Part shown: piece after piece, positions 4,240 through 35,193 of the stretch
Layout: each line of letters begins with the position of its first letter
Position numbering within the stretch: the stretch's first letter is position 1
From: a virus
Taxonomy: Duplodnaviria > Heunggongvirae > Uroviricota > Caudoviricetes
IMG/VR virus record: IMGVR_UViG_2737471857_000022
DNA length: 36,183 nt
Strand: one strand, 5' to 3'
Program-made: the position numbers and the translations under genes
Notes under the pieces: generated by a model
Seen by the model: only the letters and a program-made list of their open reading frames with translations
Database searches by the model: none
Told to the model about the DNA's origin: nothing

Positions 4240-4860
4240 GGAATCGGGCGTGCATAGATATTATATAACACATTCGCTACGCTCATGTGTAAAACCAAAA
4301 ACAACAAATAACCAAAAAGATATTAGGAGGGCGTAGCCCGACTGCGCGAAGCGCTAACCAATTACTTCTAGTAACACTAATTTAAACTAGATGATACTAG
4401 ATGGTCTTAGAAGGAATTAACTAGTTTGCTCGCTCGCTTCGCTCACTCTCAAACGTCTGCGACGCCACTGCGTGGCATCGAGAATCACTTCTGAAAGGAT
4501 TTTCTTGAAAGGGATTTTAAACTAGTTACTAACTGATTCTAGAAAGATAGTAATAATCACTTTGAAGATAATAGTAGTTAACTGGTTACTAGATGATTCT
4601 AGATCACTTTAATGATCATGAAAGGTATTGGTTATCCCTTCGGGATTGCAACCTTCGGTTGCTAAATTGCTTCCGGATTATTATTTCTCCAAAAGAAAGA
4701 TTCTTATATTCTAAAGATACTTCTTCGTTTTGATGATGATTTAATCAAAATCTATGAAGGAGGCGAAGCCGACTGAATACCAATTCCTTTCAAATTAGAC
4801 AAAAATTTCTCGTTATAAATAATAGTGTACTTTGTTTGATTCACTTTCTTTTAGAGGATT
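4240..4860. other. about 600 bp non-coding region with clustered ACTAG(A/T)T motifs and tandem UUCG-loop hairpins
   Basis: No ORF of 60 aa or more with an RBS. CTAG-containing motifs at 4366, 4387, 4396, 4420, 4521, 4537, 4588 and 4597. Hairpins at about 4458-4480, 4633-4645 and 4648-4663. Confidence 0.4.
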
Positions 4861-4866
4861 TCCACT

Positions 4867-5319
4867 ATGATCAATACTAAAACTCCTTTCATTCTTCTGG
4901 GTCTGAACCATGATGATAATCTGGCTATGATGCATGTTTTCGCTAATCGTGGTTATAACATCATTCGTCATTCCGAAGACTCCAATTTCTCAACTGCTTT
5001 CTATGCTCTTAAACGTAATGGTCGCCCTACGGTGATCGTAGACTGCTTTACTGATGAAGGTCGTGAACAATACAACAACATTCCGGCAATTATTGTTCGT
5101 GATGACCTGCCGTTTGATGTTCGTGAATATGACGTTGATTTAGGCTCTTACTATGGGATCGCCGATCTTGACCAGATTATGGCTGATTATGGTAAACAAC
5201 CCGCTCAGGAAGCCCCAGAACACGATGAACAAGACGAAGATGACGACGACTACGCACCAATCTGCTTCTCTTCTCAGAATGGCTTCTACGGTTACGATGA
5301 AGGCTTAGATATGCTGTAA
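4867..5319 (+). CDS. hypothetical protein (150 aa) with acidic C-terminal tail
   Basis: ORF with GAGGA SD; codon usage consistent with neighbours; no family recognised. Confidence 0.6.
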   Translation: MINTKTPFILLGLNHDDNLAMMHVFANRGYNIIRHSEDSNFSTAFYALKRNGRPTVIVDCFTDEGREQYNNIPAIIVRDDLPFDVREYDVDLGSYYGIADLDQIMADYGKQPAQEAPEHDEQDEDDDDYAPICFSSQNGFYGYDEGLDML

Positions 5320-5341
5320 GTTAGGTCAACCCTTTGGCGTC

Positions 5342-5383
5342 TTGTCAAGGGGTATTGACAAAATTTTCTGACTTTTTTATGAT
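5342..5383 (+). promoter_or_regulatory. sigma70-like promoter (TTGACA-17 nt-TATGAT) overlapped by palindrome TTGTCAA-N6-TTGACAA
   Basis: -35 at 5355-5360, -10 at 5378-5383, inverted repeat at 5342-5361; a further TTGACAA at 5392-5398. Confidence 0.45.
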
Positions 5384-5439
5384 TATCGCACTTGACAATT
5401 TTGAACCTATTTGACCTAGATTTGTAAAGAGGATGTAAC

Positions 5440-5772
5440 ATGAAAGAATTTACCATCACTAAATCCCTGTATGACTGGACTGTTAAAATCTCCGGCAAAA
5501 CCGTTTCTGTAAGCCCTAGCCATGTAGAAAATGATTGGGGCGTATCCCGTGAAACTATCTCCCGTAGTATGCATGTTCCGTTTGATCTGATGTCCTTAAC
5601 TGGTATTCATGCAATGCTGGAAGTTCGCGAACAATTCGAAGCTGGTAATCACAATGCGACTCCAGTTAGCAATCACCTTCTTACTAATGAAGAACGTGAA
5701 ATCATCGAAAACTGGCGTTATGAATATGCGATTCCTTATTATGAAGAAGATCAGGTAGAAATCGATTGGTAA
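5440..5772 (+). CDS. hypothetical protein (110 aa)
   Basis: ORF with AGAGGA SD; no family recognised. Confidence 0.6.
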   Translation: MKEFTITKSLYDWTVKISGKTVSVSPSHVENDWGVSRETISRSMHVPFDLMSLTGIHAMLEVREQFEAGNHNATPVSNHLLTNEEREIIENWRYEYAIPYYEEDQVEIDW

Positions 5773-5861
5773 TAAATTTCTATTATAAATAAAATTGTTC
5801 CGGTGGTGATGCCGGAACTAGGAGGACCAAATCATTAAACCGTTTAAGGGGAATTAATACT

Positions 5862-6737
5862 ATGAATACTGTTACTACTATGAATACTGCTAACGTTTCT
5901 TTTGATGCTTCTCTGACTGCCACAAAGAAAGAATGGCAAATCGATAAAACCGCTTCAATGTCTCTGGTTGTTGATAACACCAAACCGCTGACCATGTCTA
6001 CTTTGCAGATCGCGCAAATGATGGATCGCGTAGACCGCCACCGTGATATTAAGCGAACTGTTGACCGTCTCGTTTCTTCCGGTGTAATTGTCCACACGCC
6101 AACGGCGCGCGAACAACTGGAAGATAAATTTGGTCGTTCTCGTGAAATTGAAGTTTATCTTCTTGATGAACGTTCGTCATATATTGTTGTTGCTCAAATT
6201 TCGCCAGAATTTACCGCTTTTATCGTTGATGAATGGAAGCGACTGAAAGAAGAAAATGAAAAACTTCGCTCTACTCCTGTTAACCCGTATGCAGACTTTG
6301 AAGAAACAGACTGGATCGAACTGGCATTAGATGAAAAACGCAAAAATAAAAAACTGATTGAGCTACACATTCGCAAATCCGTAGATAGCCATTCTATGAC
6401 ACGTCTGTTAGGCGCTAAAAAGGGCGCTACGAAGGTTAAAGAAGCACTAACGGCCTTGCGTACTGCTGGCTACATTGAGCGCGTCTACGATGAAAATAAC
6501 AAGCCGTGTGGGTATGTTGCTAATGACTCTTCTCTGTCTTTCTGCCGCATGAATGCTCACTACCAACTTGAGTTTACTGTTGATGTTCTTCCGGTGCTGG
6601 TTGAATTGGGCGTTTTGGAAGAAGAACAGAAAGCAACTCTTAAACTACCGCAGCCAAATAACACTATTCTGATTCAAAATAAAGCGGCTGAACGTCTCCG
6701 CCAGAATGTTGGATCACTGGAAGTCTTCGGACTGTAA
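5862..6737 (+). CDS. Rha-like phage regulatory protein / antirepressor-type protein (291 aa)
   Basis: Segment LTMSTLQIAQMMDRVDRHRDIKRTVDRL resembles the Rha-family N-terminal motif (recalled); AAGGGG SD. Confidence 0.5.
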   Translation: MNTVTTMNTANVSFDASLTATKKEWQIDKTASMSLVVDNTKPLTMSTLQIAQMMDRVDRHRDIKRTVDRLVSSGVIVHTPTAREQLEDKFGRSREIEVYLLDERSSYIVVAQISPEFTAFIVDEWKRLKEENEKLRSTPVNPYADFEETDWIELALDEKRKNKKLIELHIRKSVDSHSMTRLLGAKKGATKVKEALTALRTAGYIERVYDENNKPCGYVANDSSLSFCRMNAHYQLEFTVDVLPVLVELGVLEEEQKATLKLPQPNNTILIQNKAAERLRQNVGSLEVFGL

Positions 6738-11880: not shown

Positions 11881-13884
11881 ATGCTTAAATTTCGCCGCGA
11901 TCTTAACGGTTACGGTGGAGTTATTAACGAAGGGCATAACGATCAATACGAATTTGAAATTGCTTTCTCAAGTACACAGCCTTATCAGCGCCAATTTTGG
12001 GATGAGCAAAATCAAGAAATGGTGGTATTAGATGAAATTCTGGTACATACACCGGAAGCGGTTGATCTGTCTCGTCTGAATAATAACGCTCCGTTGCTGT
12101 TCAATCATAATTTCGATAATCACATTGGTGTAGTCTGCGACGCTCGAATCGATGCGGATAACGTAGGCCGTGCTCTGGTTAAATTCTCTAAGCATGGCAC
12201 TTTGGCTAATGATATTCGCAATAAAGTCATTGAAGGTACGATGGAAAAAATTTCTGTCGGTTATGACATTAAAGAATATCACATCGACTACACCAAAGGG
12301 CAATTGATTGTTACTAAGTGGGCGCCTTTTGAAATTTCATTTGTGACGGTTCCCGCAGACGATTCGGTCGGTTTAAATCGCTCTCTAAATACTATCACAG
12401 TTAATTTGGGGGCTAAACGCGATATGACTAAAGAACAAATCGAAGAAATCAAAGAAGAACAAGAACCCGCTCAGGTTGAAGAAACTCCGGTAGAAGAAAA
12501 TAAAGAACCGAAAGTTGAAGAAACTCAAGAGCGCCAAGTTGAAGAGAATAAAGAAGATGAAAATCTCGAAGACGGAAAAGACGCTAAACATCCTGAAAGT
12601 GTTGATGATGATAGTTCAACTGTTCGGGAAACAGAAGAAGTAAAAGAAGAACGTGAAGCCGCTCCGGTTGAAGAAGAAAAAACCGAAGAAGTGGCTGAAC
12701 GTTCCGAAGAAGACGAAGAAGAAATCCGAGCAATCGCGCGGGAACTAAATATTGACGACGAAGAATTGAAACGCGCATTGGCAATTAAAGACATGACGCC
12801 GGAAGCATTCCGCACTAAGGCACTAAATAATCTCGTCAATGCTCAACGTAATAACGAACAAATTAAGGACTCTAAAATGGAAAAAACTTTTGACCTGAAC
12901 AACGTAATTCGCTCTCTGGTAGATGGTGAAGCTCTGGGTGCTAACGAAGCCGAGTTTTCTGCAATGGCTGCTACTGCAACTATGCAGCGTGGTCGTGCTG
13001 CTCGCGGTGGCTCTGTATTCGTTCCGACTGCTGCTATGCGTGCTGCTGCTGATGGTAACACCAAAGCTACTCTGACCGCTGTAACCGACGAAAAACTGCT
13101 GAATGATTCCTATGTAGCGATGCTGTTGCCGGAATCCGTTCTGGGTCGTCTTGGTGTGAAAGTCCTGTCTGGTCTGACTTCGCCGACCGCTATTCCTAAA
13201 ATGACCGCTTCCAGCGTTGAATCTTTCGGCTTCGTTGATGAAAACGGTGCTGCGCCGGAAGGTAAAGCTGAATTTGCAAACGTGAAAATGGCTCCTAAGA
13301 CGTTTGCTGGTGGGAATCCGATCAGCAGAGCTAGCCTCAAGACCGTACCCGGCATCGCTACCCTGATCACTGATCACATTAACCAGGCTGTTCGCATCAA
13401 ACTGGAACAACTGATTCTGTCCGACAAAGAAAATGCTCGTGGTCCGGCTGGTGTGATTAAACAACTGGTAGATGCTGGTCGCGTAGAGAAGAAAGCTGCT
13501 TTCTCTTATAAAGACTTCCTGAAAGAAATTGCTAAACTGACCGACGCTGGCGTTCCTGCTCAGGCGATCAAGTTTGCAATGAGCGGTGCAACTGCTGCTG
13601 AACTGGAATCTACCCTGAAAGATAACGGTGTTTCCGGTTATATCATCGAAAACGGTAAACTGGCTGGTTACGACGTAGTTACTTCTGGTGTTATTCCGGT
13701 AGACCACATCGTTCTGGGATCGTTCGACGCTATTACCATCGGTGAATGGGGTGGTCTGGAACTTGACATTGATGACACTACCTACCGCGCACAGTCTGCT
13801 ATCGTTCCGCGTATCTGGGTAGATCTGGATTACGTTGTAACCCAGCCGGAAGCGCTGAAAGTTCTTCACATCTCCGCTGAATGA
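11881..13884 (+). CDS. single polypeptide fusing prohead protease (HK97 gp4-like), acidic scaffold/delta linker and HK97-fold major capsid protein (667 aa)
   Basis: N-terminal 170 aa carry protease-like motifs (LLFNHNFDNHIG, ISVGYDIKEY, EISFVTVPADD). Residues about 180-300 are Glu/Lys-rich low complexity. The C-terminal 340 aa are capsid-like. Confidence 0.8.
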   Translation: MLKFRRDLNGYGGVINEGHNDQYEFEIAFSSTQPYQRQFWDEQNQEMVVLDEILVHTPEAVDLSRLNNNAPLLFNHNFDNHIGVVCDARIDADNVGRALVKFSKHGTLANDIRNKVIEGTMEKISVGYDIKEYHIDYTKGQLIVTKWAPFEISFVTVPADDSVGLNRSLNTITVNLGAKRDMTKEQIEEIKEEQEPAQVEETPVEENKEPKVEETQERQVEENKEDENLEDGKDAKHPESVDDDSSTVRETEEVKEEREAAPVEEEKTEEVAERSEEDEEEIRAIARELNIDDEELKRALAIKDMTPEAFRTKALNNLVNAQRNNEQIKDSKMEKTFDLNNVIRSLVDGEALGANEAEFSAMAATATMQRGRAARGGSVFVPTAAMRAAADGNTKATLTAVTDEKLLNDSYVAMLLPESVLGRLGVKVLSGLTSPTAIPKMTASSVESFGFVDENGAAPEGKAEFANVKMAPKTFAGGNPISRASLKTVPGIATLITDHINQAVRIKLEQLILSDKENARGPAGVIKQLVDAGRVEKKAAFSYKDFLKEIAKLTDAGVPAQAIKFAMSGATAAELESTLKDNGVSGYIIENGKLAGYDVVTSGVIPVDHIVLGSFDAITIGEWGGLELDIDDTTYRAQSAIVPRIWVDLDYVVTQPEALKVLHISAE

Positions 13885-14781: not shown

Positions 14782-15615
14782 ATGAATATTACACAAGATA
14801 ACTTAGACATTTTCACGGGGTCGCATGTTGAAGTCTCCGTGTCTACTATGGTGGATAACCAGCCGGACTTTTTCGATCCTGCATTTAGTCCTATCGAGAA
14901 CATCGCAGCATTCCCGACGATAACCGAATCCACAGAGATCCAGACGTTAGAAGAGTATGATCAGGACGCTACTGGTAAACTTGCTGGCTATCGTAAACTT
15001 GAATCAACTACGTTAGTAGTAAACCGTGTTCTGGATGACGAACATCAAGACATGTTGATGAAAGCGGTGAATGATAAAACTCCTTTACGCTTTCGTATGT
15101 TCTATGTTGTGAACTCTGGTTACAGTGCTGCTAACACAGGTTACTACGTCATTTTTGACGCTTATGTCTCGTCACATAAAACAAAATCCGGTGATAACAA
15201 AGTTACTACAATCGAGTTTAAATTAGAACCTGATGGCGGGATTCTAGATCGCGGTATTGCTACCGAAGGCCGGATCTTACGTCAGGGTGATTTTGGTTTG
15301 GGTGCTGGTGTAAATCCATTCACGGGTCCGATTGATAGCGAAGCATTAGCCGGAAACCGTTTCGTAACCTATCAGGGATCGAGCGCATCTAACCCATTTA
15401 GTGCTGATACTTCACTAATTCACGTTCAACCTAATGAAGATGGTGGATGGCAATTAACTTGCACCGCTTCTGGTGCACCACGTTTACGAGTTCGCACAGT
15501 CCAGAAAGACGGTAATTCTGGATGGGTGAAATTGTATTCCACAGAAGAAAAACCGACACCAGCCGAGATTGAAGCCGTTTCTATCCATGACCGGATCGAT
15601 TTCGGGGAATACTGA
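14782..15615 (+). CDS. tail-tube paralogue with about 110 aa C-terminal extension (277 aa); candidate fibre-attachment collar/ring protein
   Basis: N-terminal 165 aa align with CDS 20097..20567 (DIFTGS/DIFSGG, IAAFP/CAAFP, KLAGY.../KLVGR...). C-terminus has KPTPAEIEAVS, also found in the fibre. Confidence 0.6.
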   Translation: MNITQDNLDIFTGSHVEVSVSTMVDNQPDFFDPAFSPIENIAAFPTITESTEIQTLEEYDQDATGKLAGYRKLESTTLVVNRVLDDEHQDMLMKAVNDKTPLRFRMFYVVNSGYSAANTGYYVIFDAYVSSHKTKSGDNKVTTIEFKLEPDGGILDRGIATEGRILRQGDFGLGAGVNPFTGPIDSEALAGNRFVTYQGSSASNPFSADTSLIHVQPNEDGGWQLTCTASGAPRLRVRTVQKDGNSGWVKLYSTEEKPTPAEIEAVSIHDRIDFGEY

Positions 15616-15686: not shown

Positions 15687-18600
15687 ATGCAATCAATCCA
15701 ATTTAAACGAACTAATGTTTCTGGCAAAAAACCAACGCCGGAACAATTACAGGTCGGTGAGGTAGCAATCAACCTTAAAGACCATGTTATTTTTACCAAA
15801 GACCGAGATCATGAAGTAGTTCAAATCTCTGTTTCTCCTGAAACTCACGCGGCACTAGAATCTAAAGTTGATGCTAACAAACAAGAACTAGATAGCACAA
15901 TTGCAGTAAATGACCGCAATATTCACGCTAAAGTAGATGAAATTAAACAAACTACTGATGCAACCATCGCAGCAAATCACGCAGAAATTAACAATAAAGT
16001 TGATGTAATTAAACGCGAAACCGACGCGACAATCGAGGCCAATAAAAATAAAGCTGCTTCCGACCTTGCTGGTGTTAAAGCTGAATTGTCGGATACCATC
16101 AACGCTAATAAAAATGCGGCTGCTGTAGCAACTCAGGAACTGGACACCCGCATCAATAAAAAAGTTGATGATATTAAATCCCGCACCGATGCAACCATCG
16201 CAAGCAATGACAAAGCAATCAATGACAAGGTTGATTTGATTAAGGCAGAAACTGACCGCACTATCGCAGCAAATAAAGTCTATGCGGAAAATCAGTTAAC
16301 TGACACCTACAATAACCTTACTGGTGTGATTGCAGCCAATAAGCAAGAGGCAGCGGATAACGTCGCAGCATTAACCCGTGATGTTGAAGCCAAAAATACA
16401 GCAATTCATAGCAAAATTGACAACAACAAGGTTTACACTGATTCTGAATTGGCACGCTTAGAAAGCCGTATTGATGCAGCCGATGGATCTGCTGATGGCA
16501 AGTACATCAAAAAACACGTAAACACTTATACTGATGGTTATTTGCTGTCTAAGACCGCAAACTATTTTGATGATCCAAGTGCGCGTAATCTTGATTACTT
16601 TGGTGCATTCCGTATGAATGACCTAGCGGGTCATATTGCTTTAGCGTTACATGTTCCGCATCCATCCGGCGTTAATCATGCTCGTGGTTTTGAGTTCACT
16701 TATGGGTCTAATCCACATGCTACGGTAAGAACATACGGCTATGATGAATTGGGTCATTTGGCATATTCTCACCGCATGTATCATGAAGGTGATAAACCTA
16801 CTCCGGCTGAAATTGGCGCATATTCGAAAGCAGAAATTGACCGCCTGTTCCAGAAGACGCTTAATTTTGGTATCGAGGGCGGTTGGTTTAAACTAGGCAC
16901 TTTGACAATGCCACAGCAACACGGTCGCACCGCTAAGATCCGTTTGGTTGGTGGTAACGGTTATAACGTCGGGATGAATGGACAAGCCAATATTATCGAA
17001 TTGGTGATTCGATGCGGCAACAATAGCCCGAAAGGTGTTGTATTCAATGCTTATTATAGCATCTGGTATCACGAACAACATTTTTGTGCAATTCCTACCG
17101 ATGGTGATAATTACGATCTTTACGCTTACTATGGTGCACATACAGGATTTGTTTTAGCAGAATATCAAGTTTCTTCCGGTGGTGTTTCTTTAAACCTGTT
17201 GGATACTCCTGAATACCTGGGCGGTGAAAAACCTGTTGCAGATGAAATTTTTGATGCTCTTAACATTTCATCGTTCAATAACTTTAGCAACCGTGGAACG
17301 TTAAATTTTGGCGGAAACCATCAAGGCCAATATGATATTGAGCATTTGAACGAACAACAAACAAATGCTAAAAAGATGTTGCGTCGCTTCCGTAGTTCTG
17401 CTCCTGCCACTATCTGGCATGAAACTGTTGATGATAACGCATATCGTCTTGCTACTGGATACGAAGATACAAATCAGGAATTATTACTGACAGCAACAAC
17501 CGGATTACATATCAAGAAATTAACATTGGATGGCGGTGTTGGTGGAAATTCTGGTATTGATATTCGTCGAGGACCAAATGAAGCAAGCCATTTTAATTTC
17601 ATGGATTATCGCACTGGTCAAGATGTTCGTAATGGCTGGTTTGGTTTTGGTGACGGTCAGACGAAAGATTTTATTTGGTGGAACGATAACGGTCAAAACT
17701 CAATCAACCTGATCGAAAACGGTGAATTGCATATTACTGGTGGTAAAGGCCAGAAAATTGTAATGAATAGCGAAGTTGCATTGTCTGAAAATGCTCGTTT
17801 GGCTGTCAAAGGCGGTAACTATGGTTTGATTTTACGCAATGATGGTTCTGGTTTCCATATTCTTACTACCAATTTAAAAGATTCTTTTGGTAGTTGGAAT
17901 AATCGCAGACCATTCAGTTATGATTTTGCGGACGGTGGATTATATTTAGGTGGTACTGAAACCGCTCGGTGTTTACATCTGGGGATTGATGGTAGCACTC
18001 GTCTTGAAGACAACCTGTTCTTTAAAGCTGGTTCTCGTCAATCTATGGACTATATGGAACTCGTCCATTGGGGGGCAAGCAATACAGGTCGAAATAACGT
18101 TTTAAGTCTTCGTGACTCAAAAGGATTTTTCGCAGAATTTGAAAGATTGGGTGATAATACCATTAAAAACTCCTTCTTTGGTAAACTTAAAATTAATCGC
18201 GGATCTGATGCAATTATCATGAATGCCGAAAGTGGTGATTCTTCTGTATATTTGTTGGGTACGTGTGCTGATAACAATAATTGGTATATCGGTAAAGGCG
18301 GCGCTGATAATGGATTGGCGTTCTATAGTTATGCTACTAATGCTGCTGTAAACATTACAAACGCGGGGGATATCGCTCTAAGTCCAAAAGGCATCGAAAT
18401 GACTCATGTCAATAACGTTCGATTCTATGTTCATGGTGAACGTTGGACTGCTAGCCAATCTGGAGGTTGGAACGACCAGTGGGGATTAGAAGCGCCGATA
18501 TTTGTCGATCATGGTTATGTTTCACCGGACTGTTATTACCCAATTATTAAAGGAAGAAGTTTAATCACCAATCAAGGGTATACAACTGCCGTCGATTTTG

Positions 18601-19097
18601 GTCTGCGTCGTGTTCCTAATGCATGGGGACAAGCAATTATTCGCGTTGGATCTGCGGAGGCATCGCCAGCGGCTGGTCATCCTCAAGCTGTATTCGAGTT
18701 CCATCATGATGGTACTTTTTACTGTCCTGGTAATGGTAACTTTAACGATGTTTATATTCGTTCCGATCGTCGTCTGAAAATTAATGTTGAAGATTACGAA
18801 GAAAATGCGGTGGATAAGGTAAATAAACTCAAAGTTAAAACCTACGATAAAGTTAAATCTCTTAATGACCGAGAAGTTATAGGTCATGAGATTGGTATTA
18901 TCGCACAGGATTTACAAGAGGTATTACCGGAAGCTGTTAAAACCGCAAAAATTGGTGGTTTTGATAACCCAGAAGAAATTTTAACAATTTCAAACTCCGC
19001 AGTGAACGCGCTTTTAATTAAAGCGGTCCAAGAAATGAGCGAAGAAAATAAACTTCTTCGTGAACGTCTTGCTGCAATTGAAGCTAAATTAGGGTAA
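15687..19097 (+). CDS. side (L-shaped-type) tail fibre with C-terminal intramolecular chaperone domain, T5 pb1-like (1136 aa)
   Basis: Four about 22-aa repeats (xIxxKVDxIKxxTDATIxAN) at aa 77-200. C-terminal 110 aa (YIRS/DRRLK...GIIAQDLQEVLPEAVK...NSAVNALLIKAV) resemble the S74-type chaperone of T5 pb1 and endosialidases (recalled). Confidence 0.85.
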   Translation: MQSIQFKRTNVSGKKPTPEQLQVGEVAINLKDHVIFTKDRDHEVVQISVSPETHAALESKVDANKQELDSTIAVNDRNIHAKVDEIKQTTDATIAANHAEINNKVDVIKRETDATIEANKNKAASDLAGVKAELSDTINANKNAAAVATQELDTRINKKVDDIKSRTDATIASNDKAINDKVDLIKAETDRTIAANKVYAENQLTDTYNNLTGVIAANKQEAADNVAALTRDVEAKNTAIHSKIDNNKVYTDSELARLESRIDAADGSADGKYIKKHVNTYTDGYLLSKTANYFDDPSARNLDYFGAFRMNDLAGHIALALHVPHPSGVNHARGFEFTYGSNPHATVRTYGYDELGHLAYSHRMYHEGDKPTPAEIGAYSKAEIDRLFQKTLNFGIEGGWFKLGTLTMPQQHGRTAKIRLVGGNGYNVGMNGQANIIELVIRCGNNSPKGVVFNAYYSIWYHEQHFCAIPTDGDNYDLYAYYGAHTGFVLAEYQVSSGGVSLNLLDTPEYLGGEKPVADEIFDALNISSFNNFSNRGTLNFGGNHQGQYDIEHLNEQQTNAKKMLRRFRSSAPATIWHETVDDNAYRLATGYEDTNQELLLTATTGLHIKKLTLDGGVGGNSGIDIRRGPNEASHFNFMDYRTGQDVRNGWFGFGDGQTKDFIWWNDNGQNSINLIENGELHITGGKGQKIVMNSEVALSENARLAVKGGNYGLILRNDGSGFHILTTNLKDSFGSWNNRRPFSYDFADGGLYLGGTETARCLHLGIDGSTRLEDNLFFKAGSRQSMDYMELVHWGASNTGRNNVLSLRDSKGFFAEFERLGDNTIKNSFFGKLKINRGSDAIIMNAESGDSSVYLLGTCADNNNWYIGKGGADNGLAFYSYATNAAVNITNAGDIALSPKGIEMTHVNNVRFYVHGERWTASQSGGWNDQWGLEAPIFVDHGYVSPDCYYPIIKGRSLITNQGYTTAVDFGLRRVPNAWGQAIIRVGSAEASPAAGHPQAVFEFHHDGTFYCPGNGNFNDVYIRSDRRLKINVEDYEENAVDKVNKLKVKTYDKVKSLNDREVIGHEIGIIAQDLQEVLPEAVKTAKIGGFDNPEEILTISNSAVNALLIKAVQEMSEENKLLRERLAAIEAKLG

Positions 19098-19103
19098 TTG
19101 GAA

Positions 19104-19123
19104 AGCGGGGAGAAATCTCCGCT
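19104..19123 (+). other. stem-loop after the fibre gene
   Basis: AGCGGGGA-GAAA-TCTCCGCT, one mismatch, no T tract. Confidence 0.3.
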
Positions 19124-19135
19124 AAGGATTCTTAT

Positions 19136-19432
19136 ATGGGATATTGGGTAAGTAGTGAAATTAATACTAAAATCGATGCTTTAAAATGGCATGTATTTGA
19201 TATTCCTAACGGCTATGGTACTGCTCGTGCTGGTGTCGCTGTAATGCGTCATAATGCTGGTGGTGGGTGGTCTGATGCACATATTAACGTAGATGGTTTG
19301 ACCGTTGCTCGTCGTCGTGGTGGGACCAATTGGGGATCTACTATAAATTCGTTTGTTCCTGCTGGCTGCACCGTCTCCTTTGGTTTAGGGGGTGAAGGTG
19401 GTGTTGAATATTTTAAATTCATGGAGTTTTAA
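19136..19432 (+). CDS. small fibre-module protein, paralogue A (98 aa)
   Basis: AAGGA SD; shares W..(F/Y)FDIPNG(W/Y), Gly-rich middle and TVSF...YFKF with the next two ORFs. Confidence 0.65.
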   Translation: MGYWVSSEINTKIDALKWHVFDIPNGYGTARAGVAVMRHNAGGGWSDAHINVDGLTVARRRGGTNWGSTINSFVPAGCTVSFGLGGEGGVEYFKFMEF

Positions 19433-19434
19433 TT

Positions 19435-19740
19435 ATGGCTGGATGGATAAATCAAAGAATGTCAAACGCTATTAGTATTTGGGCTAATGGTGGATATTTT
19501 GATATCCCCAACGGCTGGGTTACTGATTCATGCGGAATTGTTTTTGCTCATATGGAAGCCATTAACGGTGCTGGTGATCTTGATTCTGAATTGGCTGTAA
19601 ATGGATTGATTGAATCAGGTCATCATGCTGGTGATGCTGGGAGTTGGGGCGCTAGTTCTTTAGTTGGCGCTGGTGCTACCGTTAGCTTTACATTGGGTAA
19701 AGGTAGTTTGCATTATTTTAAATTCAGGAGAATGCACTAA
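19435..19740 (+). CDS. small fibre-module protein, paralogue B (101 aa)
   Basis: Start 2 nt after the stop of A; same motif set. Confidence 0.65.
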   Translation: MAGWINQRMSNAISIWANGGYFDIPNGWVTDSCGIVFAHMEAINGAGDLDSELAVNGLIESGHHAGDAGSWGASSLVGAGATVSFTLGKGSLHYFKFRRMH

Positions 19741-20042
19741 TGGCATTTTGGGTAGATGGCGCTTTGGGGAATAGGGCGGGTAAAGCAAATCAAGGATGGT
19801 TTGATATTCCTAACGGTTGGACAGCCGACGCTTTCGGGACTATTTCATTCTGTGCTCATTCTTCCGGTGGTGGCGGTGGTGACTCTGAATTGCTTATTCA
19901 TGGTTTGTGTGTTTCTGGAAGCCATAAGGGTCATGATTGGGGACAGATTCATTCTTGTATTGCACCGCAAGGGGCGGTAATTACCGTTAGCACAAATAGG
20001 GGGATCGCTCATCTTCGTTATAGACGTTTGAGCAACCGCTAA
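19740..20042 (+). CDS. small fibre-module protein, paralogue C (100 aa)
   Basis: TAATG stop/start overlap with B; same motif set, more diverged C-terminus. Confidence 0.6.
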   Translation: MAFWVDGALGNRAGKANQGWFDIPNGWTADAFGTISFCAHSSGGGGGDSELLIHGLCVSGSHKGHDWGQIHSCIAPQGAVITVSTNRGIAHLRYRRLSNR

Positions 20043-20096
20043 ATAAATAGAATTACGGGTATGTGCCCTATTGTTTAAAATAGAAGGAAAAGAATA

Positions 20097-20567
20097 ATGA
20101 CTACTAAATTTGATATTTTTTCTGGTGGCCTCGTTGGTCTGTTTCTGCATGAAGAAGTAACTAACACCGATCTTGACAGTGAAAGCTATCTGGAAATTCC
20201 AGAATGTGCGGCTTTCCCGGAAACTGGTGTAGAACGTTCTACTATCGATGTTCCTAACTTCGGTGGTCCGTATAACCGTAAGCTGGTTGGTCGTATGTCT
20301 GTACCGGATATCGAACTTTCGATCAACTACATGCCGGGTAACGAAGTACACGAAAAACTGATTAAAGCAACCGAAGACGGTAAGCGCGTACAGCTTAAAA
20401 TTGCTTACTACATCGACGCTACGAAAAAATCTGGTGTGCACATCGCTTATAACGGCTTCCTGTCTAAAACTACCATGACGGGCGGTGAAGATGCTGTAGT
20501 AGGTCGTTCTTTCACCTTTGTAGTAGATGGTGCTCCGGTTAAACAAGCTGTTTTCCAGAAAGTCTAA
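20097..20567 (+). CDS. major tail tube protein, lambda gpV N-domain-like (156 aa)
   Basis: ELSINYMPGNEVHEKLIKATEDG resembles gpV [23 protein letters not shown] (recalled). Sits directly ahead of the chaperone pair and tape measure; strong terminator downstream. Confidence 0.7.
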   Translation: MTTKFDIFSGGLVGLFLHEEVTNTDLDSESYLEIPECAAFPETGVERSTIDVPNFGGPYNRKLVGRMSVPDIELSINYMPGNEVHEKLIKATEDGKRVQLKIAYYIDATKKSGVHIAYNGFLSKTTMTGGEDAVVGRSFTFVVDGAPVKQAVFQKV

Positions 20568-33494: not shown

Positions 33495-35174
33495 TTAAAT
33501 TCCAAATTCCTGTAATGGACCTGATATTTCCTCTTCTGGTTTCCAGTTCTTATCTGTCAGCATGTCTAAACATGGATGCAAAACAAGCCCGTTACTTTCC
33601 AGAATCTGTCTATCATTGATAGTTTTCAAATCAACGAAGATCCGGCCTTTCCTCGGTCCTCTTGAATTTTCTATTACAACTCTCTGGGTCTTGCCATCGA
33701 TGTATTCCAGTACAAACAAGTTTTTGTACTTGTCAATCCTGCTACACCCGATCCGTTTTAGAGCTTGCTTAATCTTAAACCGGACCTTAATGCGATCCTC
33801 GTTGTAAACATCTTCTAAATCAAATTCTGCGAGCTTCTCCCAGCCTTGAGAGTCAACAGAATACATTTCCTCTTCTGCCATCTTGATCTGATTGTAGAGT
33901 GTTTCACGCTCGCTATTGAGGGTAGTAATCTGATCGGCTAGTTCCTTCGTTGCTCCTGTCATAGCAGAAAGGGCAATCAGGTTATCAATCTTGCGTGATA
34001 TCTCATCAACCTGTACTTTCAACGCCGGAACCGGATTAGCCTTATCCTCAGCAATCCAGATTTTATCAGCCAGCAATTGCAATACAGCTTTCTCTAATTG
34101 ATCACCTCGAAAACTCCAGTTTGTATGCACACATGCAATACGACTAGAGCGCATTGCATCGCATGAATAACGATATTGGTTAGGACGTTTGTTAGTTCCT
34201 TTCACCTTAACCATAGCGGAACCGCAATGTTCACATTTCAATAGACCAACACCACTAAGCAAGGGAATAGGTTTAACTTCTTCCTTGTCTCCATAGTTAC
34301 ATGCTCTAACACCAATGCTTTTCTTAAGGTGATAAAACTCAGCGTCATCTAGCACACGAGGATAATAATCCTTTAACTCATACTTAACGCCATCTACAGA
34401 GATTTCCTTGATACCAATCAAAGCGCGGGTATGGAACAACCTTTCAATCATTGCCCGTGACCAGTTTGAATGCCTCTTGTGACTTGCGGCTGGTGGTGGT
34501 GTGTATGTCGCGTTAAGGTGATCCAGTATCTCGGCGGTTGACCGTCCATTCCTGCGTAATTCCACAACTTCCTGAACAATAGGGAAGAAGACCGGATGAG
34601 GAAGCACATAACCAGATGTGGTATCAGTCCACCACATATTCTTTCCAATTTCCTCGATTGCAACAGCCGGATTTTGTGGATTTTCTTGATGAGCTTTAAT
34701 CTTAATCAATGCGCTTGAGTTAGTACGATTGCGCTTAGTCTGACTTTCCTCGTTAGCTCTCGCAAACAACATGACACTCAACAGCAAATCAATAGGATTG
34801 GCATTAACCGATTCCTTGCTATAGACCTTACCATCCATGCCAGTTACGATAGTTATTCCCCTACGGATAATCGAGAGAAATAGCTCTTGTGCTTCAATGA
34901 TGGATTGGCGAGAGATACGGTCTAAGTTTTCCACAACCAGCCAGCTACCAACCGGAACGGATCGACCAATCTCATCCAGAAAGCGAGATAGTGCACCTGT
35001 TCTACTGTTAGCCCCTTTGAATGCAGATACACCAAAATCCTGATAGCTTGTAACTAGCTCAAGATCATATTTTGCGGCTATCTCTGCGGCTGTTCTCTTC
35101 TGGCGTTCATAAGAACTACCATCCGCTTGCTTCATAGACGAGAAGCGAATATACGAATACAGTTTAGTTTTCAT
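33495..35174 (-). CDS. large serine recombinase (phage integrase), about 559 aa from ATG 35174
   Basis: N-terminal resolvase motifs YIRFSSMKQ, SYERQ, LVVENLDRISRQ; zinc ribbon CEHCGSAMV...YSCDAMRSSRIAC; C-terminal coiled coil. Confidence 0.85.
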   Translation of the reverse strand: MKTKLYSYIRFSSMKQADGSSYERQKRTAAEIAAKYDLELVTSYQDFGVSAFKGANSRTGALSRFLDEIGRSVPVGSWLVVENLDRISRQSIIEAQELFLSIIRRGITIVTGMDGKVYSKESVNANPIDLLLSVMLFARANEESQTKRNRTNSSALIKIKAHQENPQNPAVAIEEIGKNMWWTDTTSGYVLPHPVFFPIVQEVVELRRNGRSTAEILDHLNATYTPPPAASHKRHSNWSRAMIERLFHTRALIGIKEISVDGVKYELKDYYPRVLDDAEFYHLKKSIGVRACNYGDKEEVKPIPLLSGVGLLKCEHCGSAMVKVKGTNKRPNQYRYSCDAMRSSRIACVHTNWSFRGDQLEKAVLQLLADKIWIAEDKANPVPALKVQVDEISRKIDNLIALSAMTGATKELADQITTLNSERETLYNQIKMAEEEMYSVDSQGWEKLAEFDLEDVYNEDRIKVRFKIKQALKRIGCSRIDKYKNLFVLEYIDGKTQRVVIENSRGPRKGRIFVDLKTINDRQILESNGLVLHPCLDMLTDKNWKPEEEISGPLQEFGI

Positions 35175-35193
35175 ACCATTTCCAAACAAAAAC

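Follow-up and report, generated by a model that had tools for sequence, protein, structure and literature searches.

Three short paralogous genes, here called A, B, and C, follow the side tail-fibre gene of an E. coli prophage; the same ordered triplet stands behind chaperone-bearing fibre genes of distant phage lineages, and in nature it and the fibre-tip adhesin gp38 replace one another. The triplet probably encodes a detachable fibre-tip module that occupies the gp38 slot with an unrelated fold and with three chains, and it looks like an undescribed host-range module. In the reading that we favour with moderate confidence, the three gene products would form a heterotrimeric A·B·C cap or adhesin that docks on the cleaved end of the fibre.

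The window, i.e. the whole stretch of 36,183 nucleotides that was analysed, is a siphovirus-type prophage of E. coli. Its gene order is terminase, portal, protease-capsid fusion, connectors, a 277-aa tube-like protein, the 1136-aa side fibre, and A, B, and C, followed by a 156-aa tube protein, tail chaperones, tape measure, distal tail proteins, a 1258-aa central fibre, and a large serine recombinase. The three tandem open reading frames reported in the initial annotation were found at their positions, all on the plus strand (Table 1), and Pfam and PHROG matches confirmed that the gene preceding them encodes a tail fibre. Their stops and starts indeed abut or overlap, with a spacer of 2 nt between A and B and a TAATG overlap of the B stop and the C start. 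Shine-Dalgarno-like sites (AAGGA, GGAG, and AGGAG) are located 7–9 nt upstream of the starts of A, B, and C, respectively. The gap of approximately 38 nt between the fibre stop and gene A harbours a hairpin (RNA fold −13 to −15 kcal/mol, z −2.66) that is also kept in phages G37-3 and KFS-EC and carries a putative-terminator annotation in phage G2248; it is possibly an attenuator that reduces expression of the triplet versus that of the fibre. Strong terminator-like sites were identified only upstream of the fibre gene and downstream of the tube gene. Speculatively, translational coupling, the hairpin between fibre and A, and the terminator-like sites would fit a stoichiometry in which three fibre chains are matched by a single copy each of A, B, and C. 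A foreign base composition of the cassette was ruled out, as the GC content is 0.39–0.44 over the entire tail region.

Table 1. Coordinates of the side-fibre gene, its chaperone part, and the downstream triplet in the window.
Feature	Position	Strand	Description
Side tail-fibre gene	15687..19097	+	1136 aa; gp37-like shaft, Ox2/T2-type distal tip ending ...FYCPGNGNFNDVYIRS
Peptidase_S74 intramolecular chaperone	18765..19097	+	Fibre aa 1027-1136; aligns to the chaperone part of S16 gp37 (PDB 6F45)
Hairpin	19104..19123	+	GC-rich, 8 bp, no T-run; between fibre stop and gene A
Gene A	19136..19432	+	98 aa; predicted W4-headed N-terminal helix and C1q/TNF-like jelly roll
Gene B	19435..19740	+	101 aa; architecture as gene A
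Gene C	19740..20042	+	100 aa; same family as A and B; GGGGG loop

An alignment of A, B, and C with MAFFT contained 19 invariant columns, among them W4 and FDIPNG. Pairwise BLASTP comparisons gave amino acid identities of 43% over 79 aa for A and B (E 5e-12), 36% for B and C (E 2e-15), and 24% for A and C (E 2e-8 to 4e-11). Judged by these sequence comparisons, the three proteins are true and significant paralogues, and the figure of about 30% identity given previously was a fair one. The shared motif W...(F/Y)FDIPNG(W/Y) proposed at that time was retained for the tryptophan and FDIPNG; the residue preceding FDIPNG is V, Y, or W. Likewise, a TVSF...YFKF end applies to A and B but not to C, which ends with VITV...LRYRRLSNR. 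The C-termini are class-specific: A ends with an invariant ...F(M/I/Q)E(F/M/L), B with F.F(R/K)RM., or more broadly over the lineages ...R(M/F/G)., and C with ...RYRRL... At one aligned position of the tail, Glu is invariant in A and Arg is invariant in B. In Salmonella and metagenomic relatives, B has an N-terminal extension of 15–30 aa. W4 is invariant in 27 enterobacterial members, where it heads a predicted helix in each of A, B, and C; some distant members have L, Y, M, or Q instead. The glycine content is 16–17%, without repeated glycine-rich motifs, and reading of the A, B, and C sequences revealed no signal peptide and no hydrophobic or membrane segment. Between two E. coli allele sets, dN/dS values of 0.08–0.24 were obtained, indicating that the genes are under purifying selection. 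Gene C is the most conserved of the three (0.08), with values around 0.1 for both B and C. Gene A is the most variable member; its two allele sets are 75–78% identical, and its variation is found in loops at one end of the predicted sandwich.

The upstream fibre protein matched the Pfam families Peptidase_S74 (E 5.6e-15, aa 1026–1085), Gp34_trimer, and gp37_trimer as well as PHROG 1699 (long tail fibre distal subunit, E 5e-126), and its C-terminal 250 aa are homologous to gp37 of phage Ox2. From the known behaviour of the S74 family, the cut that releases the chaperone is predicted to fall behind Ser1026 (...YIRS↓DRRLKIN). The S↓D junction, ...YIRS↓D(R/G)RLK, is kept in all fibres linked to a triplet.

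Searches of Pfam, PHROG, NCBIfam, PADLOC, and PDB sequences with A, B, and C gave no match, and no C1q or TNF match appeared in Pfam at E values up to 0.1. The initial annotation was thus justified in not recognising the family, as no curated family or solved structure matches by sequence. A word-indexed search of 5.8 billion proteins retrieved 35 clusters, all from E. coli, Shigella, or Salmonella, and an exhaustive HMMER scan of 1.84 billion representatives gave 19 hits, approximately 15 of which are relatives of about 100 aa. Four large HMMER hits (P0043, P0050, P0052, and P0054) look spurious and were rejected; P0050 and P0054 were read and are unrelated repeat proteins. A scan of genome contigs gave no match, as the species representatives there lack the prophage. 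The genomic context was fetched for the window, nine IMG/VR prophages of E. coli, one Salmonella siphovirus prophage, the lytic T-even Krischvirus phages G37-3, G2248, and UPWr_E1, and six metagenomic lineages; one metagenomic locus has a T7-type fibre (Phage_T7_tail and Peptidase_S74). All these loci contain exactly three tandem copies in the order A-B-C directly downstream of a fibre gene that ends in an S74 domain. The ordered triplet was found in at least 10 independent lineages, and upon clustering the first-position proteins from all lineages formed one group. HMMER relatives for which no locus was fetched resemble A, B, or C members by sequence. A fused form was not found among the HMMER relatives and fetched loci, and none of the fetched loci represented a lineage with one, two, or four intact copies. 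The old triplication, the fixed order, and the lack of fetched lineages with another copy number speak for non-redundant parts of a single assembly and against alternatives.

These results bear on the two functions considered in the initial annotation. The proposal of three subunits of one asymmetric adaptor was supported in part, by the fixed order, the class-specific features, the lack of single or double copies, translational coupling, the C1q/TNF-like fold, and the exchange with gp38 described below. The proposal of alternative receptor-binding proteins is disfavoured by these same findings. In that scenario, each paralogue would form its own homotrimeric cap, giving three alternative tips of differing specificity per population or per virion. 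C1q/TNF-like domains commonly homotrimerise, and a Trp-helix as well as variable loops are present in every one of the three proteins. We nevertheless regard this scenario as rather improbable: the A-B-C order and the class-specific termini are conserved over very distant lineages, no lineage was seen with one, two, or four intact copies, and decay removed copies together in KFS-EC and in E. coli TO6. Moreover, A varies and B and C barely do, coupled translation would give a fixed 1:1:1 output, and the tail Glu of A against the Arg of B hints at contacts between complementary chains and not of a chain with itself.

The gp37 of most T-even phages has a self-cleaving chaperone at its end; once this is removed, each fibre is capped by one gp38 adhesin (PMC9569957). 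In T2-type phages, gp38 is the receptor binder (PMC9569957; PMC12892980), and T2 without gene 38 forms no plaques (PMC12892980). In G37-3, G2248, and UPWr_E1, the triplet is located between gp37 and the holin gene, i.e. in the canonical slot of gene 38. No gp38 was found in the complete G37-3 genome by tblastn, and the early-region site at which RB49-like phages have a displaced gp38 is empty in all three phages; for G2248 and UPWr_E1, the absence of gp38 was assigned from this site and the gene-38 slot. Vice versa, gp38-bearing Krischvirus phages have no triplet. Gene A was present in only four of 50,697 phage records, and the fourth A-positive phage, KFS-EC, contains gp38 and a triplet reduced to an A::C deletion-fusion with a frameshift. 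The resulting 107-aa open reading frame of KFS-EC was ruled out as a natural single-copy form, as it derives from fusion via a GGTGGTG microhomology plus the frameshift, with gp38 located elsewhere.

The converse replacement was observed in E. coli TO6 and apparently in ETEC4085, where the fibre gene is followed by an Ox2-type gp38, a remnant of C, and the tube gene. The TO6 gp38 is 87% identical to the Ox2 type over the attachment domain, and in the 70-aa remnant the first nine codons of a T-even open reading frame are fused to the final 60 residues of C; A and B, together with part of C, have been overwritten by the gp38 cassette. In four other prophage loci (L007, L009, L012, and L015), a fibre with the tip type of TO6 precedes an intact triplet. 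Together, the Krischvirus and TO6 patterns indicate that either gp38 or A-B-C can take one and the same slot on the fibre end, and that this holds for two phage backbones unrelated to each other. Homology of the triplet to gp38 was rejected: hhalign of the 27-member profile against Ox2 gp38 gave a probability of 0.3%, and no gp38 match was obtained in Pfam or PHROG. In the literature on gp38 of Krischvirus, S16 gp38, and heterotrimeric tail-fibre receptor binders, no description of the triplet was found.

AlphaFold2 modelling with the family alignment gave confident models, with pLDDT values of 85.3 for B (pTM 0.72) and 81.6 for A. Both models comprise an N-terminal helix followed by a seven-strand β sandwich; the low confidence of the helix is expected if it packs against a partner. 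In structural comparisons, model A scored 8.7 with C1QL1, 8.3 with collagen VIII NC1, 8.2 with the C1q domain of caprin-2, 8.0 with adiponectin and C1q C, and 7.9 with C1q A; scores of 8.9 and 8.2 were obtained with a pectate-lyase carbohydrate-binding module and PBSX XepA, respectively. The jelly-roll sandwich was superimposable on gC1q/TNF domains, and Foldseek against viral models gave weak matches to tail-fibre proteins, viral C1q-domain proteins, and collagen-repeat proteins. The C1q/TNF-type structural neighbours are distal, trimer-forming head domains; as the scores are moderate, the likeness is taken as a fold resemblance and not as proven ancestry. Variable positions fall into alternate loops (approximately residues 27–31, 38–52, 62–67, and 80–88); the topology places these at one end of the sandwich. 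The FDIPNG loop, the remaining alternate loops, and the C-terminus are conserved. In gene A, nonsynonymous change was enriched about five-fold in the variable loops, which shows concentration only and not positive selection, because the loop set was picked from the variability profile.

The cassette is optional: a sister prophage with an otherwise equivalent fibre lacks it, and it behaves as an indel with sharp borders. This behaviour and the absence of a functional annotation would also fit a fibre-unrelated cargo, with roles in host interaction, exclusion, or anti-defence, inserted at a recombination-prone spot. Such a cargo is very improbable, given that the triplet occurs in strictly lytic T-even phages and in T7-like contexts, always adjoins the fibre stop codon with the short gap and in coupled form, encodes neither signal peptides nor membrane segments nor a PADLOC match, has fibre heads as structural neighbours, and is mutually exclusive with gp38.

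The distal fibre plus triplet is 87–95% identical to Krischvirus phages at the nucleotide level; positions 18717–20058 of the window are approximately 95% identical to G37-3 despite different tips, and the part common to G2248 and the window comprises only the last ~18 chaperone codons and the triplet. Triplets with 97–99% identity are found behind at least three tip types, represented by the window, L008, L011, and L014 (Ox2 tip), by G37-3 and L010 (second type), and by L007, L009, L012, and L015 (third type). This finding ruled out a tip-specific docking, in which the Ox2-type tip would be what the triplet recognises. The three types have in common only the residues just ahead of the cleavage site, ...D(V/I)YIRS; this fits docking on the extreme end of the fibre, a situation that is tolerated by gp38 in TO6. 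Within the prophage family, mosaicism is greater in the tips than in the triplet, opposite to what is seen for gp37/gp38, where the adhesin is the hypervariable partner; hence, the tip may be the main receptor binder, and the triplet may be accessory.

The tightest linkage of the triplet is to the chaperone-coding end of the fibre gene and not to the tip type, so that a role in fibre maturation is conceivable. The proteins would then be non-virion factors that act on the cleaved chaperone, by holding, capping, or releasing it, or that shield the nascent fibre end, and are discarded afterwards like T4 gp38, a pure chaperone under the same name (PMC6851490). The lower variability of the triplet compared with the tips and the optional nature of the cassette agree with such a role. 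Several findings render it unlikely: the predicted fold is that of a fibre-head or lectin jelly roll and not a known tail-fibre-assembly fold, no chaperone match was obtained in Pfam or PHROG, the chaperone tail is not kept in distant triplet loci, and nonsynonymous change is patterned in the A loops. To our knowledge, S74 chaperones act without helpers in characterised systems. In addition, the replacement in TO6 is a gp38 of the T2/Ox2 adhesin type rather than of the T4 chaperone type, and it is this adhesin type that is absent from triplet phages.

The mosaic tips, the high conservation of B and C, and the optional cassette are also compatible with a purely structural virion cap that seals, stabilises, or spaces the cleaved end and leaves receptor recognition to the tip. 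The exchange partner of the triplet is, however, a receptor binder in T2-type phages (PMC9569957; PMC12892980), and A has two divergent allele sets with amino acid changes concentrated in loops. We therefore consider a cap without any role in recognition to be quite improbable.

In the favoured mechanism, a single coupled message just downstream of the fibre gene would yield A, B, and C at roughly equal levels, and the three proteins would assemble into one A·B·C heterotrimeric knob with a pseudo-threefold jelly-roll head. The fibre trimer would fold, and its C-terminal Peptidase_S74 chaperone would cut itself off. The knob would then dock on the newly exposed conserved end, ...[N/R]D[V/I]YIRS, at which T2/S16-type phages carry monomeric gp38. 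In S16, three conserved Trp residues, which sit at helix apices, hold gp38 on the gp37 trimer by occupying three equivalent pockets of the gp37 base (PMC6851490). The three N-terminal Trp-helices of the triplet, one per subunit, would fill the three symmetry-equivalent pockets used by those of gp38; in other words, three chains with one amphipathic Trp-helix each would do in trans what a single gp38 chain does with three. The variable jelly-roll loops at the far end, chiefly those of A, would point towards the host surface and take part in binding a receptor or glycan. The Trp-helices start with W-V-S-S, W-I-N-Q, and W-V-D-G in the triplet and with W-I-G-S, W-M-S-Q, and W-M-S-Q in Ox2 gp38 (assigned by inspection); this local likeness in sequence is a lead only. 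Counting against the favoured mechanism are the strong conservation of B and C, which is atypical of adhesins, the replacement of W4 in some distant members, and the lack of detectable gp38 homology.

A more far-reaching proposal is put forward tentatively. Three paralogous chains may here make up an obligate heterotrimer that serves as a receptor-binding tip, the first of this kind in phages and a viral counterpart to the head of complement C1q. Such a tip would insert non-covalently into the conserved end that self-cleavage of the chaperone leaves on sipho-, myo-, and podovirus fibres, offer three different binding faces per fibre, and represent a second plug-in host-range cassette, independently evolved and exchangeable with gp38.

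Like gp38 of T2/S16-type phages, the triplet is encoded immediately downstream of a chaperone-bearing gp37-type fibre, has a similar overall size (299 aa combined versus approximately 260 aa), and is naturally interchangeable and mutually exclusive with gp38 in Krischvirus and in the prophage family of the window. Unlike gp38, it comprises three chains, each predicted to contribute one of the Trp-headed helices, has no sequence homology to gp38, and is predicted to adopt a β jelly roll instead of a β-helix plus polyglycine-II sandwich. It also lacks the repeats of glycine-rich motifs and hypervariable segments and is far less hypervariable. The globular head of complement C1q is a heterotrimer of A, B, and C chains encoded by three tandem paralogous genes. 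In comparison with C1q/TNF heads, the triplet domain is smaller (approximately 80 aa with 7–8 predicted strands versus 10), shows no Pfam C1q/TNF signature, and has an N-terminal helix in place of a collagen stalk; common ancestry is not established, with carbohydrate-binding modules scoring similarly. In C1q-like or knob domains of phage and giant-virus fibres and of Bacillus BclA, the head is homotrimeric and lies within the fibre polypeptide, whereas the triplet is encoded separately, in three versions, and would require non-covalent attachment after proteolytic maturation. Small genes just downstream of a fibre gene are also known from lambda Tfa, P2 G, Mu U, and T4 gp38/gp57A, and some tail-fibre assembly chaperones stay bound to the tip. 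The triplet differs from these by the lack of a family match in Pfam, PHROG, and NCBIfam, by its predicted fold, and by the intramolecular chaperone already present in its fibre.

To predict or re-programme which hosts a T-even phage infects, the main point of access is a detachable tip adhesin such as gp38. If correct, the favoured reading would explain how the gp38-less Krischvirus phages G37-3, G2248, and UPWr_E1 and the E. coli/Salmonella prophage family recognise their hosts. The triplet would then have to enter receptor-prediction models and would offer engineers a small exchangeable module of 0.9 kb. It would be an unusual structure for a homotrimeric fibre to bear a heterotrimeric cap, which would have three non-equivalent binding surfaces, and docking of this cap would have converged with that of gp38 on the same fibre end. 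As cassette-bearing lytic phages are held in culture collections, the reading is directly testable. Among 5426 complete E. coli genomes, the cassette was present in 24, where it is always annotated as 'hypothetical protein (x3)'.

A block derived from T-even phages had recombined into the temperate siphovirus prophage of E. coli TO6 (locus L033). It comprised a chaperone tail of the Ox2 type, the gp38 gene and the opening nine codons of a T-even ORF (MVYNIVIGA...); a 70-aa chimeric remnant of C was left by the recombination. This arrangement shows that genes have passed directly between lytic T-even phages and prophages at the triplet/gp38 locus. The positions of the features described are compiled in the table.

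Positions of features in the window and at related loci
Feature	Sequence	Position	Remarks
Capsid gene	window	11881-13884	667-aa protease-major-capsid fusion
Tube-like genes	window	14782-15615 and 20097-20567	bracket the fibre cassette
Fibre N-terminal third	window	15687-16500	fibre aa ~54-260; long, repetitive, helix-rich
YFKF string in A and B	window	19409-19423 and 19711-19725	
Prophage integrase	window	33495-35189 (- strand)	563-aa large serine recombinase
Single ORF after gp37	KFS-EC (L002)	4637-5066	107 aa; A(1-89)::C(47-...) deletion-fusion
T-even-derived block	E. coli TO6 (L033)	5001-6056	also NZ_CP122634.1 near 2751878

In G2248 and UPWr_E1, the gp37 proteins (L005 and L006) have an S16-like chaperone and, behind the FEFHANG motif of the Ox2 type, an extra domain of ~100 aa. 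Both phages match the window type in the triplet and in the final ~18 residues of the chaperone (EENKLLRDRLAAIEAKL), which implies a recombination joint within the terminal helix of the chaperone. In G2248, a 714-aa hypothetical ORF (G2248_00084; L030, 3894-6038) is inserted near the empty site of the displaced gp38; G37-3 has no such ORF at the homologous place. The Ox2-type chaperone ends with ...KISKYFKF, as seen in Ox2 gp37 (L004) and in the TO6 fibre, and the YFKF string also stands at the end of the final strand in both A (EYFKFMEF) and B (HYFKFRRMH). Its presence in the chaperone end, A and B may be either a coincidence or a recombination scar.

In KFS-EC, the A::C fusion is joined at a GGTGGTG microhomology, and an extra G causes a frameshift in the fused ORF; gp38 is located at 153141-153917. 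The N-terminus of KFS-EC gp37 is resembled by the first 40 aa of the window fibre (IQFKR...GE.AINL.D motif), which would be the junction to the next fibre segment. The N-terminal third of the window fibre contains recurring units of the type ...D(A/R)TI(A/E)ANK...KVD.IK... and gave a weak match to the Apolipoprotein Pfam family.

Over its N-terminal ~145 aa, the 277-aa tube-like protein is distantly paralogous to the tail tube protein of 156 aa (E 3e-4 at 20% identity), and both proteins matched PHROG 158. The 277-aa protein additionally has a C-terminal extension of ~130 aa, and the pair is kept in the Salmonella prophage (L003) and in E. coli sister prophages. The 277-aa protein might form the tube-like ring to which the side fibre is anchored.

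One metagenomic lineage (L021, 2497-3177; L023, 1375-4083) has no tube gene behind the triplet but encodes there another large fibre-like protein, of 902 aa. The B gene of one IMG/VR prophage copy (L014, 6001-6304) is frameshifted and the locus 1 nt longer, which may reflect a sequencing error or decay.
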